Below, one piece after another: positions 293 through 11,145 of a stretch of DNA of 11,342 nucleotides; within the stretch, counting starts at the first letter, position 1; every line of letters begins with the position of its first letter. The stretch is from positions 1 to 11,342 of the IMG/VR virus record IMGVR_UViG_2778261353_000007; one strand, 5' to 3'. A program made the position numbers and the translations under genes. The notes beneath the pieces are model-generated. The model was not told where the DNA came from, did not search any database, and was given only the letters and a program-made list of their open reading frames with translations. Source of the DNA: a virus (lineage: Duplodnaviria > Heunggongvirae > Uroviricota > Caudoviricetes).

Positions 293-387
293 GGAAGATC
301 GTCGTCTCCGGTGAGGCGGCTGGACTTCAAATCCAGTTGGGGCCGCCAGCGGTCCCGGGCAGGTTCGACTCCTGTGATCTTCCGCCA
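293..387 (+). tRNA. selC: tRNA-Sec (selenocysteine, anticodon UCA)
   Basis: 95-nt sequence GGAAGATCGTCGTCTCCGGTGAGGCGGCTGGACTTCAAATCCAGTTGGGGCCGCCAGCGGTCCCGGGCAGGTTCGACTCCTGTGATCTTCCGCCA matches the E. coli selC tRNA as I recall it: long variable arm, anticodon TCA at 327-329, encoded 3' CCA. The minus-strand ORFs overlapping it are spurious. Confidence 0.93.
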
Positions 388-549: not shown

Positions 550-1728
550 ATGGCTCTAACCGATATACAGATCAAACGAGCAAAACCACAAGACAAGCCA
601 TACACATTGAACGATGGACAAGGTCTGTCATTGCTTATCAATCCCGATGGCTCGAAAGGCTGGCGTTTCCGTTTCCGATTTGCAGGAAAAGCGCGGTTAA
701 TGTCATTTGGCAGCTACGATTTAGTAAGCCTCGCAGAAGCACGTGAGAAGCGTGATATCGCCCGTAAGCAGGTTGCTAATGGCATTGACCCGGTAGAGGA
801 ACGCAAAGCTTTAAGACTCGCCCAAAAGCTATCAACAGAAAATTCTTTCGAAGCAATATGTCGAGAATGGCATACCAACAAAGCTGACCGCTGGACTGTG
901 GCCTATCGAGAAGAAATTATTAAGACATTCGAGCAGGATGTCTTCCCGTTCATTGGTAAACGTCCTATCAGTGAAATCAAACCATTAGAACTGCTTGAAG
1001 TATTGCGACGAATAGAGAAACGAGGAGCACTAGAGAAGACCAGAAAAGTGCGCCAAAGATGCGGTGAGGTCTTTCGTTATGCAATCATAACTGGCCGAGC
1101 TGAATACAATCCAGCACCTGATTTAGCTATCGCTCTGGCCGTTCCTAAGCAAAAACACCACCCATTTTTATCTGCCGAAGAGTTGCCTTATTTTATTCAA
1201 GATCTTGAAGCGTATACCGGAAGCATCATCACTAAAAATGCGACAAAGATAGTCATGTTAACTGGCGTAAGAACTCAGGAAATGCGCTTTGCCACGTGGG
1301 ATGAAGTTGACCTTGAGAAAGGAATATGGGAGATTCCAGCTGAAAGGATGAAAATGCGCAGGCCTCATATTGTACCTCTATCTACTCAGGTGATTGCCCT
1401 TTTTAAACAGCTCAAGCCTATTAGCGGCCATTATCCCTACATTTTTATTGGAAGAAATAATCGTAGTAAACCGATCTCTAAAGAAAGTGTATCACAGGTT
1501 ATTGAATTACTAGGCTACAAAGGTCGCGCTACAGGTCACGGATTTAGACATACTATGTCAACCATTTTGCACGAAAAGGGATTTGACAGTGTATGGATTG
1601 AAATGCAATTAGCTCACTTAGATAAAAATACTATTCGAGGTACATATAACCATGCACAATATTTAGAGAAGAGAAAAGATATGATGCAATGGTATGCGGA
1701 CTTTTTATACAAATCATTGGAGCGGTAA
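550..1728 (+). CDS. int: Tyrosine site-specific recombinase, P4-type integrase
   Basis: 392-aa ORF directly downstream of a tRNA gene. N-terminus MALTDIQIKRAKPQDKPYTLNDGQGL is typical of P4-family integrase arm-binding domains. C-terminal catalytic signature is present: Arg in LTGVRTQE, HGFRHT box and Tyr in RGTYNHAQY. No obvious Shine-Dalgarno before the ATG. Confidence 0.9.
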   Translation: MALTDIQIKRAKPQDKPYTLNDGQGLSLLINPDGSKGWRFRFRFAGKARLMSFGSYDLVSLAEAREKRDIARKQVANGIDPVEERKALRLAQKLSTENSFEAICREWHTNKADRWTVAYREEIIKTFEQDVFPFIGKRPISEIKPLELLEVLRRIEKRGALEKTRKVRQRCGEVFRYAIITGRAEYNPAPDLAIALAVPKQKHHPFLSAEELPYFIQDLEAYTGSIITKNATKIVMLTGVRTQEMRFATWDEVDLEKGIWEIPAERMKMRRPHIVPLSTQVIALFKQLKPISGHYPYIFIGRNNRSKPISKESVSQVIELLGYKGRATGHGFRHTMSTILHEKGFDSVWIEMQLAHLDKNTIRGTYNHAQYLEKRKDMMQWYADFLYKSLER

Positions 1729-1744: not shown

Positions 1745-2386
1745 TTAATATATGGATGCTATTACCATTAAGACTTTAAAGAAAAACATGACGACAATTA
1801 ACCAGATAATTAAATACCCCCAAATACTACTGATATGATAGTTAATTCTACCTTTTAGCATCCTCCAAAAGCTAAAATTTTCAGGCGTATGGGAAATATA
1901 ATATCTGCTCTTTACTATTTTATGATATTCATAATCAACAGGGCTATGGTTGAAAGTGCATGTTGATTTTATTTTTTCATACTCATCGCGAAGATTATCT
2001 ATATTTTTATAATCTTCTTCAGTCATTTCATTTTTTAAGCTATTTTTGAATAGAGAAAGTTTCCTTTCATACTCATTAAGTAACTCAGCATTTCTAAAGA
2101 GAGCTTCAGATTTAGCTCCTGATGCAACTCCCCACTCAATAAGACTAATTATAATTAATAGCATACTTAAGATAATAGAAAATGCGGTTATTAATATATT
2201 GAGTTTAGGATTTATATCATTAATCCAAAAATATTGCATTAATGATAATATAATACTGGAAAGGCCAATTAAAGCGAGACTAATAGTTGAAAAGATCTCT
2301 CTGACCTTTAATCGACGGGATGAATTATATCTTGCACACGATGTTTCCCATGCAGCTTTACTTAGGCTATCCAAAAAATCTTTCAT
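1745..2386 (-). CDS. Hypothetical membrane protein with three predicted TM segments; candidate effector partner of the adjacent reverse transcriptase
   Basis: ORF track gives 1745..2482 (245 aa). I prefer the internal start MKDFLDSL at 2386 (213 aa) because GGAG lies 6 nt upstream (2393-2396) and the longer N-terminus runs into the GC-rich spacer. Hydrophobic stretches IFSTISLALIGLSSIILSLMQYF, LNILITAFSIILSMLLIIISLI and C-terminal ISSIWGYLIIWLIVVMFFFKVLMVIASIY; charged, probably helical region between TM2 and TM3. AT-rich like the RT gene. No family recognised. Confidence 0.65.
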   Translation of the reverse strand: MKDFLDSLSKAAWETSCARYNSSRRLKVREIFSTISLALIGLSSIILSLMQYFWINDINPKLNILITAFSIILSMLLIIISLIEWGVASGAKSEALFRNAELLNEYERKLSLFKNSLKNEMTEEDYKNIDNLRDEYEKIKSTCTFNHSPVDYEYHKIVKSRYYISHTPENFSFWRMLKGRINYHISSIWGYLIIWLIVVMFFFKVLMVIASIY

Positions 2387-2580
2387 TATAAACTCCATGA
2401 ATAGTATAAAGTGACGCAACGCCGGAGATATCAGTCCAATCCTCTTCACCAGCAGTTTCCCCCGATGAAGGTTTACTACCATTTTAGGTCAGGAGCACTT
2501 CTGCCCATCACGGCATTTCCGCATGGGGTACGGCACCTGCAAGGCAAGTGCCGTCGGCGTTGGTCAAGCTCAATATATCA

Positions 2581-3990
2581 TTATTTAGGATATACTTCAC
2601 CTTCATCTGCATGCATGCTAGCTAGATTTTTAGCTTTATATCTCTCATAACGCTCTTCAACCTGTTCTTTAGTTAACCTCTCACCTTCAGCAATCCTTCC
2701 GCGCCGGTGCAAGAATTCAGTTTTTTGTTTAACAGTTTTAATCTGGTCGTAATCTCGTATATAACCTCTATGTGGGCTATATTTCATTTCATAATAAGCA
2801 CGTGTTACCTTTTTCAATCCTTCAGGTGCACAATTATCAAAATCATCCAAGCGTTTAAACATTTCTCTTATTATAAAATCTATTTTATGCAGAAGAGAGT
2901 GGTCGGTAATATTTGAATAATAAGCCACCCATCCATATCTTTTTTTCTCACTAATAGCCCCTGTTAACTTATCATTTAACTCTTCCAGAAAAACATCTTT
3001 AAGATCATCAACGGTTAAATGTGTATACTTCTTTAAACGTTTATTTTTATTGTGAAGATAGTCACTAAACCTAGATGCGATTGATTTTATAAATGATTCT
3101 ACAGTCGAATCTCGCACTGTTATAACATTTGCATTAAAAACATATCCCAAAAAGCTAAAAGACTCATTAAGAAAACCTAAACGTGTCTTAGATGATGTTG
3201 GCGGATGAGTGTTTAATCCCCTATATTTAAGCCTACGCCGTAGTGAATGATAAGCTGAATTTACCTCGTCATAATTTCCATAAATTAGCACATCATCAAC
3301 ATATCTATAGTAAGCTACATCAAACTTTAGCATTTTATCATCAACACTTTGCAGATAAATTGCAGCTAAAATATTAGATATTGACAACCCTTGAGGAACT
3401 CCCTTTTCATTATCAAAAAAAAACTTCCTCATTTTTTTATTAACACTATCACTTGTTGTTGGTGTTAAAAGAGAACGAACTATGAGGTCCAACGCTCTTT
3501 TACAATGCACTCTTTTTGATAGAATCTTTTTAAGTCGATGTTTGTTTATATTGTCATAGAAACCTTCAATATCACAACTACAAACATAAATATCTTCAGG
3601 GGGCATATCTTTTAAATCATCCGAGATATTTCTAATATAAGTTGAAGCAATACTCTTAGGTACACAATCAGGGAAAATCTCACAAAGAAAAACATTGAGC
3701 TGTTTTAATACAATGCGATCTCTAATTGTTGGTATAGAAATTACCCTAGGACTTTTTCCTCGCCCTTTACTTTTTAATTTTTCTAAGTAAGGAGTAAATC
3801 TAAATGAACCGTCAAGACATTTTTCCGAAACTTTCTTTAATTCCTTTCTGGCTCTACTTGAATATTGCATGCCATTGATTCTGTCAATGCCTTTTGCTGC
3901 CGACTTACTAAATTTATCAGAATACACATCAAATAAAGATTTTGGGGAGAAGAGTTTTTTAAATAACGTTTCTTGTGCTCGTTCATCCAT
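2581..3990 (-). CDS. Reverse transcriptase (RNA-directed DNA polymerase), unclassified, probably defence-associated
   Basis: 469-aa ORF with the RT motif series: AAKGIDRINGMQY (motif 0/1-like), RVISIPTIRDRIVLKQL (motif 2), CDIEGFYDNI (motif A, catalytic Asp), GVPQGLSISNILAAIYL (motif B'), YRYVDDVLIYG (motif C, YxDD), FLGYVF (primer grip). About 180-aa charged C-terminal extension. SD-like AAGGTG 5 nt before the ATG. Very AT-rich relative to the P4 backbone. Confidence 0.9.
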   Translation of the reverse strand: MDERAQETLFKKLFSPKSLFDVYSDKFSKSAAKGIDRINGMQYSSRARKELKKVSEKCLDGSFRFTPYLEKLKSKGRGKSPRVISIPTIRDRIVLKQLNVFLCEIFPDCVPKSIASTYIRNISDDLKDMPPEDIYVCSCDIEGFYDNINKHRLKKILSKRVHCKRALDLIVRSLLTPTTSDSVNKKMRKFFFDNEKGVPQGLSISNILAAIYLQSVDDKMLKFDVAYYRYVDDVLIYGNYDEVNSAYHSLRRRLKYRGLNTHPPTSSKTRLGFLNESFSFLGYVFNANVITVRDSTVESFIKSIASRFSDYLHNKNKRLKKYTHLTVDDLKDVFLEELNDKLTGAISEKKRYGWVAYYSNITDHSLLHKIDFIIREMFKRLDDFDNCAPEGLKKVTRAYYEMKYSPHRGYIRDYDQIKTVKQKTEFLHRRGRIAEGERLTKEQVEERYERYKAKNLASMHADEGEVYPK

Positions 3991-5459: not shown

Positions 5460-6190
5460 GACAGCAGTCCTCTGGCCTTAAGCTCTGCACCCTGCTGGTC
5501 TATTTTGTCCTGCCACACCTTGCGCTGTGCCGGTGTGCCTGCCACCTCATAATCCATGTGCGGGAGTGTTGCCGCTGACAGTCCGGTCAGCCGGAGAACC
5601 GGCTCGCCGGTGAGGCTGATTTGCATCTGTTTAATTTTCTGTTCCAGCGATGATTTCACCTGCTGCATGACAGCCTTTTCCGGTGCGACGTAGCCCTGAT
5701 GGCCGGTGGTGTTGGCGAGCGGATTTTCCTGTACCAGAATGCTCAGATGCATTGCCCGGACAAGCGCCTCACAGGTTTCATTCAGGGCGTGTTCCAGCTC
5801 ATGCTCTGCATACAGACTCAGAAGGTGATGATGTGCCTTCCGGTAGGCGGTGGCCGTGCTGTCACACGCCCCTTTCAGGCGTTCGCGTTCAAAATTCAGC
5901 ACCACGGCCAGATTGTCATATTCCTGTACCAGCTCCCGGCGTGCCACGCGCTCAATGTGGCGCTGTTTCAGCTCGTCGCTCAGGACACCACCGGCTGCAC
6001 GAAAGGCCGTGCGCCAGTCGTCAGCGTCGTTTCCGTCGGCCTGCGCCAGCGCATTTTTTTCCTGCTCTGCCCGTTCAATGGCCGTGACGGTCTCATCCAT
6101 CAGACGGGCGTTCTCAAGATGGGCGGCTCTGGCCTTTTCCAGTTGTGCCAGCGCGGATTGCAGATATTCAGGGATGGTGTTGTCAGACAT
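5456..6190 (-). CDS. sid: Capsid size determination protein Sid (external scaffold)
   Basis: 244-aa ORF, the size I recall for P4 Sid; first gene of the late operon; GAGGAG Shine-Dalgarno upstream of the ATG; helical, Ala/Glu/Leu-rich composition. Confidence 0.9.
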   Translation of the reverse strand: MSDNTIPEYLQSALAQLEKARAAHLENARLMDETVTAIERAEQEKNALAQADGNDADDWRTAFRAAGGVLSDELKQRHIERVARRELVQEYDNLAVVLNFERERLKGACDSTATAYRKAHHHLLSLYAEHELEHALNETCEALVRAMHLSILVQENPLANTTGHQGYVAPEKAVMQQVKSSLEQKIKQMQISLTGEPVLRLTGLSAATLPHMDYEVAGTPAQRKVWQDKIDQQGAELKARGLLS

Positions 6191-6741: not shown

Positions 6742-7008
6742 ATGCAAGCTGTTTTTTCTTCCCCGTCTCCCGCCCCTGTGACGCCACTGATGCCGCTGCC
6801 GGACATCACGCAGGAGCGTTTTTTACGTCTGCCGGAAGTGATGCACCTGTGCGGCCTGTCACGCTCGACCATCTATGAACTCATCCGTAAGGGGGAATTT
6901 CCGCCGCAGGTGAGTCTTGGCGGTAAAAATGTGGCCTGGCTGCACTCTGAAGTCACCGCATGGATGGCCGGCCGCATTGCCGGACGCAAACGGGGGTATG
7001 ACGCATGA
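6742..7008 (+). CDS. vis: AlpA/Vis-family small DNA-binding regulator (excisionase-like)
   Basis: 88-aa ORF with the AlpA-type helix-turn-helix core [27 protein letters not shown] and a conserved Trp-containing tail; GAGGT Shine-Dalgarno 7 nt upstream. Same size and position as P4 orf88/vis as I recall. Confidence 0.75.
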
Positions 7009-7604
7009 TGATGCCCGCTCTGCAAAAAGTCCCTTTTTCTGGCTTGCCTTTTTCCGGCATTTGCGGATATAGTTTTTCCGCTGTCGCAAAATCGGCAGCC
7101 GGGCGTGGAAACCCGAGCAATCTAACGGCGACATATGACGCGCCATGCGTCTTTTTTTGTGTCGCAATCAACGCCACAGAGCGCCAGATTATGGTGTGGT
7201 GTGTGGTCAGTCGAGCAGATGGCACTCCGTGCATCCTGCCCGCGTCCGCTCATTATGCCGCAGAGTCAATGGTAGCTCAGGCGGGGCAGCCTCCGGGCTG
7301 GCCGGTATCCGTTAGAGCCGGTATTTCCACCCCCGTCTGGGCTATCGCCATCGAGCGTGGAAACTCCGGCGATAGCGTAACCTGCTATCTAACGGAGGCT
7401 GCCATCATGGCTACAACCCTTACCCCTTCACACCCTGAATTTGTCTTTGTGTTTGCGGCTGTCCGTCGCGCAGACCGTCATCCCCGTATCTGCATGCTTC
7501 GCACCGTCGCCGGTGATGAACGCAGTGCCCGCCGTTCCCTTGTCCGTGACTATGTGCTCTCCCTTGCTGCCCGTCTGCCGGTGGTGGAGGTGTCCCGTGC
7601 GTAA
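7005..7604 (+). CDS. Questionable 199-codon ORF overlapping the early promoter and immunity RNA region
   Basis: ATG overlaps the vis stop (ATGA), but the frame runs straight through seqA, the candidate CI RNA and seqC, and has Ala/Arg/Pro-rich low-complexity composition. Possibly only an N-terminal kil-like portion is real, or none of it. Confidence 0.2.
7044..7073 (+). promoter_or_regulatory. Candidate early promoter (PLE-like): TTGCCT, 18-bp spacer, TATAGT
   Basis: -35-like hexamer at 7044-7049 and -10-like hexamer at 7068-7073, about 30 bp upstream of seqA. Match by eye only. Confidence 0.3.
7103..7129 (+). promoter_or_regulatory. seqA-like target of the immunity RNA
   Basis: GCGTGGAAACCCGAGCAATCTAACGGC; its ends (GTGGAAA ... 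ATCTAACGG) are complementary to CCGTTAGA ... TTTCCAC at 7309-7330. A near-repeat lies at 7355-7397. Confidence 0.4.
7271..7346 (+). ncRNA. Candidate CI-like immunity RNA containing seqB
   Basis: Contains seqB-like CCGTTAGAGCCGGTATTTCCAC (7309-7330), complementary to seqA and seqC. GGTAGC (7271-7276) can pair with GCTATC (7341-7346) as a closing helix, with internal hairpin CAGCC-TCCG-GGCTG. Boundaries approximate. Confidence 0.35.
7355..7397 (+). promoter_or_regulatory. seqC-like second target of the immunity RNA
   Basis: GCGTGGAAACTCCGGCGATAGCGTAACCTGCTATCTAACGGAG repeats the seqA end motifs (GTGGAAAC ... ATCTAACGG) downstream of seqB. Confidence 0.4.
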
Positions 7605-8802: not shown

Positions 8803-11145
8803 ATGAAAATGAACGTAACCGCCACCGTCAGCCATGCGCTCGGCCACTGGCCGCGTATTCTCCCGGCGCTGGGGATTCAGGTGCTGAAAAACCGTCATCA
8901 GCCCTGTCCGGTCTGTGGCGGGAGTGACCGCTTCCGTTTTGATGACAGGGAGGGGCGCGGCACCTGGTACTGCAATCAGTGTGGTGCCGGTGACGGCCTG
9001 AAACTGGTTGAAAAGGTGTTTGGTGTTTCCCCGTCCGATGCGGCCGCAAAGGTGGCTGCCGTGACCGGCAGCCTGCCCCCGGCTGACCCGGCAGTGACGG
9101 CTGCCGCCGGTGCTGAAACAGACGCTGCCCGGAAGAACGCAGCCGCACTGGCACAAACCCTGATGGCGAAAACCCGTCCCGGAACCGGTAACGCCTACCT
9201 GACCCGCAAGGGCTTTCCCGACCGGGAATGCCGGATGCTGACCGGCACACACAGAGCCGGTGGCGTGAGCTGGCGCGCCGGTGACCTTGTGGTGCCACTG
9301 TATGACGACAGCGGCGAACTGGTTAACCTTCAGTTAATCAGTGCTGACGGCCGTAAGCGCACCCTGAAAGGCGGACAGGTCAGGGGCACCTGTCACACCC
9401 TTGAAGGACAGAATCAGGCCGGAAAACGTCTGTGGATAGCGGAGGGATACGCGACCGCACTTACCGTGCATCACCTGACCGGTGAAACGGTGATGGTGGC
9501 GCTTTCTTCCGTGAACCTCCTTTCTCTGGCCAGCCTTGCCCGGCAGAAGCATCCGGCCTGTCAGATTGTCCTTGCCGCAGACCGTGACCTCAGCGGTGAC
9601 GGCCAGAAAAAAGCCGCCGCAGCCGCAGATGCGTGTGAAGGTGTTGTTGCCCTGCCGCCGGTCTTCGGTGACTGGAATGATGCCTTCACGCAGTACGGCG
9701 GGGAAGCCACCCGTAAGGCCATTTATGATGCCATCCGGCCACCGACTGAAAGCCCGTTCGACACCATGAGCGAAGCGGAGTTTTCCGCCATGAGTACCAG
9801 CGAAAAGGCCATGCGTATCTATGAGCATTACGGCGAGGCGCTCGCGGTCGATGCCAACGGCCAGCTTCTGTCCCGCTATGAAAATGGTGTCTGGAAGGTG
9901 CTGCCGCCACAGGACTTTGCCCGGGATGTGGCCGGGCTGTTTCAGCGTCTGCGCGCGCCGTTCTCCTCCGGGAAGGTGGCCTCCGTGGTGGACACCCTGA
10001 AGCTGATTATTCCGCAGCAGGAAGCCCCCTCCCGCCGCCTGATTGGCTTTCGTAACGGCGTGCTCGACACGCAGAACGGCACGTTCCACCCGCACAGTCC
10101 GTCACACTGGATGCGCACCCTGTGCGATGTGGATTTCACCCCGCCGGTGGAAGGGGAAACGCTGGAAAACCACGCCCCCGCGTTCTGGCGCTGGCTTGAC
10201 CGTGCCGCCGGTGGCCGTGCGGAAAAACGCGACGTGATTCTGGCCGCACTGTTTATGGTGCTGGCAAACCGCTACGACTGGCAGCTCTTTCTGGAGGTGA
10301 CCGGTCCCGGCGGCAGCGGCAAAAGTATCATGGCCGAAATCGCCACCCTGCTGGCCGGGGAGGATAACGCCACGTCGGCCACCATCGAGACGCTGGAATC
10401 CCCGCGTGAACGTGCCGCGTTAACTGGCTTCTCACTGATACGCCTGCCGGACCAGGAAAAATGGAGCGGCGACGGTGCCGGACTCAAGGCCATCACTGGC
10501 GGCGATGCGGTGTCCGTGGACCCGAAATACCGGGATGCGTACTCCACGCATATCCCGGCGGTGATTCTGGCCGTGAACAATAACCCGATGCGCTTCACCG
10601 ACCGCAGCGGCGGCGTGTCACGCCGGCGGGTGATTATTCACTTCCCGGAACAGATAGCCCCGCAGGAGCGCGACCCGCAGCTTAAGGACAAAATCACCCG
10701 CGAGCTGGCGGTCATTGTGCGTCACCTGATGCAGAAGTTCAGCGACCCGATGCTCGCCCGGTCACTGCTTCAGTCCCAGCAGAACTCAGACGAGGCACTG
10801 AACATCAAACGGGATGCCGACCCGACGTTTGATTTTATCGGCTATCTGGAAACCCTGCCGCAGACCAGCGGCATGTATATGGGGAACGCCAGTATCATCC
10901 CGCGTAATTACCGTAAATACCTCTATCACGCCTATCTGGCCTACATGGAGGCAAACGGCTACCGGAATGTACTCAGTCTGAAAATGTTCGGGCTGGGGCT
11001 GCCGGTGATGCTGAAGGAATACGGACTGAATTACGAGAAGCGCCATACCAAACAGGGGATACAGACCAACCTGACGCTGAAAGAGGAAAGCTACGGCGAC
11101 TGGCTGCCAAAATGTGACGACCCTGCGACAACCCGACCCTCATGA
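8803..11145 (+). CDS. alpha: Replication protein alpha: primase (zinc finger + TOPRIM) fused to helicase, with C-terminal origin-binding region
   Basis: 780-aa ORF. N-terminal zinc motif CPVCGGSDRFRFDD...YCNQCG; TOPRIM-like region around WIAEGYATALTV and AADRDLSGDGQKKA; Walker A GPGGSGKS. AGGAG Shine-Dalgarno upstream. Size and architecture match P4 alpha. Confidence 0.92.
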   Translation: MKMNVTATVSHALGHWPRILPALGIQVLKNRHQPCPVCGGSDRFRFDDREGRGTWYCNQCGAGDGLKLVEKVFGVSPSDAAAKVAAVTGSLPPADPAVTAAAGAETDAARKNAAALAQTLMAKTRPGTGNAYLTRKGFPDRECRMLTGTHRAGGVSWRAGDLVVPLYDDSGELVNLQLISADGRKRTLKGGQVRGTCHTLEGQNQAGKRLWIAEGYATALTVHHLTGETVMVALSSVNLLSLASLARQKHPACQIVLAADRDLSGDGQKKAAAAADACEGVVALPPVFGDWNDAFTQYGGEATRKAIYDAIRPPTESPFDTMSEAEFSAMSTSEKAMRIYEHYGEALAVDANGQLLSRYENGVWKVLPPQDFARDVAGLFQRLRAPFSSGKVASVVDTLKLIIPQQEAPSRRLIGFRNGVLDTQNGTFHPHSPSHWMRTLCDVDFTPPVEGETLENHAPAFWRWLDRAAGGRAEKRDVILAALFMVLANRYDWQLFLEVTGPGGSGKSIMAEIATLLAGEDNATSATIETLESPRERAALTGFSLIRLPDQEKWSGDGAGLKAITGGDAVSVDPKYRDAYSTHIPAVILAVNNNPMRFTDRSGGVSRRRVIIHFPEQIAPQERDPQLKDKITRELAVIVRHLMQKFSDPMLARSLLQSQQNSDEALNIKRDADPTFDFIGYLETLPQTSGMYMGNASIIPRNYRKYLYHAYLAYMEANGYRNVLSLKMFGLGLPVMLKEYGLNYEKRHTKQGIQTNLTLKEESYGDWLPKCDDPATTRPS

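Follow-up and report, generated by a model that had tools for sequence, protein, structure and literature searches.

The window analysed here, that is, the whole stretch of 11,342 nt, matches E. coli VG12A2 at 100% identity and carries a P4-like prophage of E. coli, which adjoins tRNA-Sec and is flanked by yicJ and setC. The core genes of P4 satellites (int, psu, delta, sid, epsilon, and alpha) are all present, full length and in P4 order. The RefSeq and P4 annotations give the P4 gene order on both sides of the immunity module: int, psu, delta, sid, vis, eta/kil, epsilon, orf151, and alpha. The vis gene, or ORF88, is annotated in P4 as an "excisionase and transcriptional regulator." The element also encodes a reverse transcriptase of 469 aa, which is of the UG17 class, has a SLATT partner, and is not that of retron Ec73.

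The immunity region extends from 7044 to 7604 (Table 1) and shares 96 to 97% identity with phage P4. The identity was 96.4% over the 1 kb between 6700 and 7700 and 97% across 631 nt, in both cases without indels, and a window position w converts to P4 coordinates as P4 position = 15772 - w. This alignment bore out the likeness to the P4 cI region that had been anticipated by a first, sequence-only reading of this DNA. RefSeq reports a protein-coding gene only at this locus, without any ncRNA. Automated annotation thus hides the actual regulator, because RefSeq gives only an "Icd-like" coding sequence and the Phage_ASH profile overlies the DNA that encodes the RNA.

Table 1. Genes and RNA features in and around the immunity region, in window coordinates
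Feature	Position	Strand	Description
vis / ORF88	6742-7008	+	AlpA-family helix-turn-helix protein; Pfam Phage_AlpA, 74 bits; directly 5' of immunity module
eta ORF	7005-7604	+	199 aa; spans seqA, cI, and seqC; Pfam Phage_ASH, 100 bits; RefSeq "Icd-like"
PLE-type sigma-70 promoter	7044-7073	+	TTGCCT / 18-nt spacer / TATAGT; promoter scan; transcript start expected at ~7080
Leader RNA, IsrK-like	7080-7157	+	hairpin 7080-7099, hairpin 7100-7115, single-stranded linker, terminator t1
seqA target	7105-7128	+	5' box GTGGAAA 7105-7111 (loop of hairpin 7100-7115); 3' box TCTAACGG 7121-7128 (single-stranded linker)
Intrinsic terminator t1	7137-7157	+	GACGCG-CCA-TGCGTC, then T7; terminator scan; 3' hairpin of isrK model
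CI RNA gene	7265-7352	+	C4 antisense RNA family; Rfam RF01695
CI hairpin 1	7287-7300	+	
CI hairpin 2	7301-7322	+	stem 7301-7305 / 7318-7322; 12-nt loop
seqB antisense core	7309-7330	+	5' box CCGTTAGA 7309-7316 (hairpin 2 loop); GCCGG 7317-7321; 3' box TTTCCAC 7324-7330 (single-stranded joint)
Alternative helix 2:3	7341-7376	+	7341-7349 (3' strand of CI stem base plus RCC tail) with 7368-7376 (inside seqC); nine perfect bp
CI 3' tail	7347-7350	+	GCCA
seqC target	7357-7396	+	5' box GTGGAAA 7357-7363; CCGGC 7366-7370; 3' box TCTAACGG(A) 7388-7396
kil Shine-Dalgarno	7394-7398	+	GGAGG; first three bases within seqB:seqC duplex
kil	7407-7604	+	65 aa, Icd-like; ATG 7407, 8 nt past Shine-Dalgarno; first translated gene after PLE
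alpha ORF	8803-11145		780 aa

The PLE site is the only promoter-like site between 6500 and 7900. Its sequence is identical in P4, and the TATAGT and the TTGC of the -35 element are kept across 59 relatives. The match to the Rfam isrK model has its 5' end at 7080 and covers the complete model (RF01394; 72.5 bits, with gathering set at 50; model positions 1 to 77 of 77; 7080-7157, plus strand). The leader helices show covariation among relatives, and the t1 hairpin is paired in 100% of them. As in P4, the terminator sits between seqA and cI, downstream of the PLE promoter, and both are conserved. The downstream terminators described for P4 (t4 and timm) were not located in the window. The c4-a1b1 model (RF03163) scored 45.8 bits at 7067-7119 (E = 2.6e-10), 0.9 bit short of its gathering score of 46.7; the isrK model overlaps this match and covers the same element. 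IsrK has been described as the structural homologue of the P4 seqA RNA and C4 as that of the CI RNA (PMC3632133, PMC4825925).

The CI RNA gene matches the C4 family over the whole model (76.2 bits, with gathering set at 45; model positions 1 to 87 of 87; 7265-7352, plus strand). The sequence-only reading had placed a tRNA-like element here, closed by a helix of 6 bp between 7271-7276 and 7341-7346. The helix exists, not as 6 bp but as the outer part of a stem of 17 bp (7270-7286 with 7331-7347), which is found in both the minimum free energy (MFE) fold and the Rfam C4 alignment. In this fold (-48.7 kcal/mol, z = -3.8) the closing stem encloses two hairpins. The stem is 100% paired in relatives, with six covarying pairs, and in an old P4 record (X02534) a dyad symmetry is marked that spans exactly 7271-7346. 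The likeness to a tRNA is confined to a mimic of an acceptor stem followed by GCCA, and ARAGORN called no tRNA at the CI RNA. The prerequisites for RNase P are present, since the 17-bp stem ends at 7346-7347 and is followed by GCCA, of which R-C-C is kept in relatives. The 5' end left by RNase P is predicted to be G7271, and the stem-plus-GCCA architecture, together with the analogy to P1, suggests a mature CI RNA of about 76 to 80 nt starting there. The CI RNA of P4 is 69 nt long. It is listed among the substrates of RNase P (PMC5499578).

The two boxes of seqB (7309-7316 and 7324-7330) are perfectly complementary to those of both seqA (7105-7111 and 7121-7128) and seqC (7357-7363 and 7388-7395), giving, as in P4-type antisense systems, perfect boxes of 7 nt and 8 nt at an upstream and a downstream target. 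In addition, the CCGGC of seqC (7366-7370) pairs with the GCCGG of seqB (7317-7321), and an internal hairpin of seqC (7371-7376 with 7384-7389) is looped out in the seqB duplex (7371-7389). A repeat search recovered the near-repeats that had been noticed at 7103-7129 and 7355-7397. It reported them as two direct repeats, 7100-7121 / 7352-7373 (77% identical) and 7117-7128 / 7384-7395 (92% identical). Perfect inverted repeats join 7121-7128 with 7309-7316 and 7308-7316 with 7388-7396, and longer imperfect inverted arms join 7096-7111 with 7324-7339 and 7310-7335 with 7352-7377. The predicted duplex energies of the seqB loop (7303-7334) were -32.4 kcal/mol with seqA and -35.8 kcal/mol with seqC, well below those of 2000 shuffled loops (z = -4.6 and -5.1, respectively), and the two sites were the best plus strand targets of this loop in the whole 11.3-kb window. 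The core at 7309-7330 is indeed complementary to both repeats, as first proposed, and the suggestion of a P4-like RNA immunity, in which this core pairs with targets to either side of it within one transcript, agrees with the identity to P4 and with the Rfam C4 and isrK families, with the refinement that the targets are bipartite.

Other pairings of the CI RNA were also considered. Extra targets at 5584-5619 and 10989-11025 (down to -30.6 kcal/mol) form irregular duplexes that depend on the invariant GCCGG stem, not on the boxes, and were rejected as GC-rich chance pairing. CI hairpin 1 (7285-7295) is perfectly complementary over 11 nt to the Shine-Dalgarno region of kil (7393-7403), but no pair was changed on both sides, and the pairing across relatives equalled the shuffle expectation, which gives it no support as a conserved interaction. 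The 5' flank and first strand of CI (7269-7276) and the initiation region of kil (7398-7405) were 81 to 89% paired in the correct register, essentially without covariation; this level of pairing results from the conservation of the sequence itself.

The 3' box of seqC (7388-7396) overlaps the GGAGG (7394-7398) that precedes the ATG at 7407, as it does at the translation start in P4, and the GGAG of this Shine-Dalgarno sequence is kept across relatives. The kil gene, whose name and role are reportedly those given by Forti et al. 1999, differs from its P4 equivalent by 2 nt and is otherwise identical. In frame, it corresponds to the C-terminal part of eta, the translation of which is expected only from the upstream PLL promoter. 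Almost all of 90 relatives retain an open frame through the RNA module, and their indels are in frame; this fits a dual use of the region as coding sequence and as RNA.

The relatives, collected by two pattern scans, were 90 close ones and about 120 more distant ones. They were analysed as alignment A2, made of 59 distinct close sequences, and alignment A3, the distant set with P1-, phiP27-, and N15-like sequences; in the slid controls, the partner was shifted by 1 to 3 columns. The invariance of the hairpin 2 helix is by construction, because the scans fixed the hairpin 2 scaffold while leaving boxes, targets, and stems free. Far from being lost in relatives, the complementarity was almost complete on A2, where the 15 pairs of seqA:seqB were 99.0% paired and the 20 pairs of seqB:seqC 98.6% paired, each with nine pairs changed on both sides, against 31 to 53% paired in the slid controls. 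It also held on A3, where the seqB:seqC boxes were 96.2% paired with 12 covarying pairs. The intramolecular helices of the Rfam models were 96.7% paired on A2, with 17 covarying pairs.

These patterns bear on whether the region could be simply protein coding (Eta, "Ash," or Icd-like), with the repeats as by-products and no regulatory RNA. The 199-codon frame at 7005-7604, its 100-bit Phage_ASH match, its standing as the sole RefSeq feature, and its maintenance in almost all of the 90 relatives speak for such a reading, which we nevertheless find barely credible. The changes are compensatory at the RNA level, with G-U intermediates among them, and occur in concert at three sites separated by as much as 290 nt, which protein constraint does not predict. 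Moreover, two Rfam covariance models score above gathering, genetic work on P4 showed that the immunity factor is the RNA (PMC4825925), and coding and RNA functions coexist here instead of being alternatives.

The module might also be a functionless remnant within a cryptic, defective prophage, its features persisting without regulating anything. Many P4-like elements of E. coli are cryptic, and some relatives are imperfect, with seqA mismatched in two of them (L013 and L049) and the targets degraded in two others (L046 and L059). This is very unlikely for the window, where the promoter, t1, the perfect boxes at three sites, the ribosome-binding site of kil, and the full-length genes are all intact. 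The allele is preserved without change in 55 genomes, and the three-way covariation in the family implies that selection is still acting.

The region is thus the known P4-type small-RNA immunity switch, and it is very probably best explained as the module that gives a P4-like satellite prophage at selC its RNA-based immunity. Constitutive transcription from PLE (7044-7073) would produce a leader with, in order, seqA, t1, the CI RNA, seqC, and the start of kil. The CI RNA would be excised from this leader, the 17-bp stem and GCCA mimicking a tRNA acceptor end for RNase P. Its exposed seqB boxes (CCGUUAGA in the loop and UUUCCAC in the joint) could then pair with seqA and seqC of further PLE transcripts. 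Pairing at seqA would promote termination at t1, and pairing at seqC would cover the ribosome-binding site of kil. The leader would then be left untranslated, and transcription would end before the replication genes epsilon, orf151, and alpha. On transcripts from the upstream PLL promoter, eta would be translated through the region, and these transcripts would evade the control. The details of termination and of eta and kil were reportedly worked out in Sabbattini 1995, Forti 1995, 1999, and 2002, and Briani 2000. For the window, RNA processing, CI-dependent termination, the escape of PLL transcripts, and heteroimmunity are expected by analogy with the genetics of P4 and P1. The mechanism of CI, seqA, and seqC in P4 has been summarised twice (PMC4825925, PMC3632133), and the genetics identified the CI RNA as the immunity factor and seqA and seqC as its targets (PMC4825925). 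From the 97% identity to P4 and that summary (PMC4825925), we infer that premature termination before the alpha operon would depend on CI.

A different logic is known from the IsrK locus of Gifsy-1. Transposed to the window, the t1-terminated seqA leader would act in trans on the long transcript or titrate CI, which would not be the primary repressor, and the leader RNA would open a closed structure and activate translation of the downstream open reading frame. The leader does match the isrK family, and in the MFE fold of the whole unprocessed leader seqA pairs with seqB in cis and CI is not folded, which resembles "structure A" at the isrK locus (PMC4825925); the outcome would therefore depend on the order of folding and on processing. 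In S. Typhi, TraDIS indicates a requirement for the IsrK-like elements of P4-like prophages (PMC3632133), and a conserved alternative helix, described below, shows that the leader can switch conformation. We consider this logic unlikely as the main one, both in its trans-acting or titrating form and as activation of translation. In P4, which is 97% identical here, the CI RNA is by genetics the immunity factor (PMC4825925), and the overlap of seqC with the ribosome-binding site has a repressing sense. The IsrK logic could supplement repression by the CI RNA, for example as autoregulation of CI through t1, rather than replace it.

Repression by CI would depend on which boxes match, and most of the differences between the window and P4 in this region lie in the boxes. 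Of the 32 differences in 631 nt, 18 fall within the 45 box positions (Fisher p = 1.4e-14). These are distributed as six each in seqA, seqB, and seqC, and all are compensatory: the seqB positions that differ from P4 are 7311, 7312, 7314, 7315, 7326, and 7327, and the changes in seqA and seqC match them. The box alleles are GGAAA in the window against GAGAA in P4 and TCTAACGG against TTCACAGG. Cognate duplexes of the window and of P4 ranged from -32 to -37 kcal/mol, whereas the cross duplexes (window CI with P4 targets and P4 CI with window targets) ranged from -18.4 to -23.1 kcal/mol, so that cross-pairing was weaker by 12 to 16 kcal/mol. The window thus falls outside the P4 homoimmunity group, understood as boxes identical to those of P4 or cross-pairing with them. 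Since the predicted cross-pairing with P4 is weaker, a different immunity specificity is expected, and the window allele is predicted, from duplex energies only, to be heteroimmune to P4. The allele carries a recognition code unlike that of the reference P4, in a system that is already known.

The boxes vary among the relatives as well. Across the 90 loci, the 3' box has 3 alleles and the 5' box has 8, at least 13 matched combinations of which occur, and all three sites are matched in about 84 of the 90 loci, with occasional mosaics. Among 12 types, the mean energy of seqC duplexes was -32.5 kcal/mol for cognate and -23.1 kcal/mol for non-cognate pairs, and that of seqA duplexes was -31.5 and -21.1 kcal/mol, respectively. 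We propose that the box sequences set immunity specificity. The type of the window is the commonest (22 of the 90 loci). An exact copy of its 41-nt core is present in 55 of the 5,426 complete E. coli genomes, that of the P4 type in 206, and some C4/CI-like RNA in 2,554. The literature searched held no description of heteroimmune types of P4-like satellites, which is not proof of novelty. Box sequences allow the typing of satellites by immunity group straight from sequence, and such typing predicts which P4-like satellites, elements that carry defence cargo, can coexist in a host or superinfect it.

The second lead is an alternative helix, here called 2:3, which excludes the acceptor-like end of CI and the hairpin of seqC. 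On A2 it was 99.4% paired, with five covarying pairs. On A3 it was 92.4% paired, again with five covarying pairs and with 81 double-change cells, against 26 to 60% in slid controls. The helix covaries across P4-, P1-, N15-, and phiP27-like elements, in the variants GCTATCGCC/GGCGATAGC, GCTACCACC/GGTGGTAGC, GTCACCACC/GGTGGTGAC, TCCGCCACC/GGTGGTGGA, and GCTACCGC/GCGGTAGC. When enforced, it lay 0 to 6.6 kcal/mol above the MFE in seven of eight representatives and 10.3 kcal/mol above it in PY54; in a P1-like precursor, it is already within the MFE fold. Formation of the helix would open the acceptor mimic for RNase P, and its 18-nt loop would display the 5' box of seqC, much as a hairpin loop holds the 5' box of seqA. 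Such a switch could couple the maturation of CI to the occupancy or presentation of its target. The helix is possibly undescribed, as no description was found in the literature searched. That the C4/CI family contains a conserved conformational switch and that P4-like satellites use a modular two-box immunity code is a joint proposal that we make tentatively and regard as possible but doubtful. The family-wide conservation of the helix offers a testable handle on how maturation of CI/C4 is coupled to target recognition. Otherwise, the analysis re-identifies the classic CI RNA immunity module of P4, and the region can be filed as explained; only two leads deserve to be followed, the modular box code and the conserved alternative helix.

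Among known systems, the immunity region of phage P4 has the same promoter, terminator, CI scaffold, open reading frames, and flanking genes as the window. It also has the same logic, in which seqB has one complementary target upstream and another downstream, and the downstream target covers the ribosome-binding site of kil. The two differ in that the element of the window lies at selC, not at the P4 att site, and carries other cargo. The satellite phiR73 is also P4-like, adjoins tRNA-Sec at selC, and carries a reverse transcriptase; unlike the UG17-class enzyme found here, that of phiR73 belongs to retron Ec73. It is heteroimmune to P4, from which it differs by compensatory changes in seqA, seqB, and seqC.

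The IsrK / STnc1160 / orf45-anrP locus of Gifsy-1 in Salmonella shares the Rfam family of the leader and a processed C4-like RNA downstream, and alternative conformations of its leader have been documented (PMC4825925). In contrast to the window, its short leader RNA is a trans activator of translation, and the locus yields an antirepressor together with the AntQ antiterminator; trans activation of this type is not known from P4-like elements. The immI region of P1/P7 (c4, icd, and ant; also in N15, PY54, phiKO2, and phiP27) belongs to the same Rfam family and clan, and an isrK-like leader and a C4 RNA occur in tandem in RCS47, PY54, phiP27, and phiKO2, as they do here. The antisense boxes of c4 are likewise bipartite and have targets on both sides, a1 and b1 upstream and a2 and b2 downstream, of which the downstream one lies at the ribosome-binding site of an Icd-like open reading frame (PMC8198154), and processing by RNase P is shared (PMC5499578). 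The identity of c4 with the RNA of the window is about 70 to 80% and concerns the RNA only. P1/P7 controls an antirepressor, with the C1 protein repressor as an addition in P1, whereas the element of the window would control replication genes.

The specificity of immunity seems to be modular in the P4-like satellite and its relatives, as judged from the segments by which seqB, within the CI RNA, matches its targets seqA and seqC. The comparison of the positions equivalent to 7105-7128, 7309-7330 and 7357-7395 of the window across loci L003-L090 revealed three alleles of the 3' box of seqB (TTTCCAC, TTCTCAC and TTCCTAC), which combine with eight alleles of its loop box and give at least 13 matched seqA/seqB/seqC combinations. 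In two loci, L013 (Mangrovibacter) and L049, the specificity of seqA differs from that of the seqB and seqC of the same locus, suggesting that these are mosaics that have recombined between seqA and cI. Two further loci (L046 and L059) have imperfect targets, and the modules of all four loci are mosaic or degraded.

An alternative helix (see the table) is predicted to compete with the closing stem of CI, at its base, and with the seqC hairpin. This helix is 99.4% paired with 5 covarying pairs in P4-like elements, and 92.4% paired, also with 5 covarying pairs, in P1-, phiP27- and N15-like elements. Its formation would place the 5' box of seqC in an 18-nt loop. When the leader is folded whole and unprocessed (7080-7420), the minimum free energy (MFE) structure lacks the CI cloverleaf and pairs seqA with seqB in cis (z = -4.5), a fold similar to the translationally inactive "structure A" of the Gifsy-1 isrK locus (PMC4825925). 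In the MFE fold of 7340-7420, CUCCG (7364-7368), within seqC, can pair with the Shine-Dalgarno CGGAG (7393-7397) around an internal hairpin, and this would leave the ribosome-binding site of kil partly occluded in cis even when CI is absent. Hairpin 1 of CI (7285-7295) also carries an 11-nt perfect complement to the kil Shine-Dalgarno region (7393-7403). This complement is present in the P4 clade, no compensatory change was found outside this clade across the relatives, and it is either lineage-specific or a coincidence.

Features of the window by position
Feature	Position	Strand	Remark
tRNA-Sec (selC)	293-387		
Tyrosine integrase	550-1728		downstream of tRNA-Sec
Cargo	1745-3990	-	between int and psu
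Predicted alternative helix	7341-7349 with 7368-7376		complementarity and covariation

In RefSeq, the region 7005-7604 is annotated with a CDS only ("host cell division inhibitor Icd-like protein"), which covers the whole RNA module; no ncRNA is annotated there. The match to the Pfam Phage_ASH profile (residues 22-146) lies over the DNA encoding seqA, the terminator t1 and the CI RNA, so that constraint on the RNA may account for part of this "protein family" signal. Among 5,426 complete E. coli genomes, 2,554 contain C4/CI-like RNA genes, which occupy 3,372 places in total. Plasmids account for 904 of these places; these plasmids are presumably prophages of the P1-like kind, and the CDS overlying the RNA gene on them is annotated as "ash family protein."

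The cargo encodes a reverse transcriptase of 469 aa and class UG17 (PADLOC, 465 bits) and its partner, the two-transmembrane SLATT_5 (RTasSLATT, 121 bits), which by sequence make up a candidate DRT-type defence system located in the variable hotspot of P4. In sister elements, this hotspot is occupied by AIPR, AAA ATPase or SIR2 genes. The succession of tRNA-Sec and integrase genes places the integration of the satellite at selC, which is likewise the integration site of retronphage phiR73.
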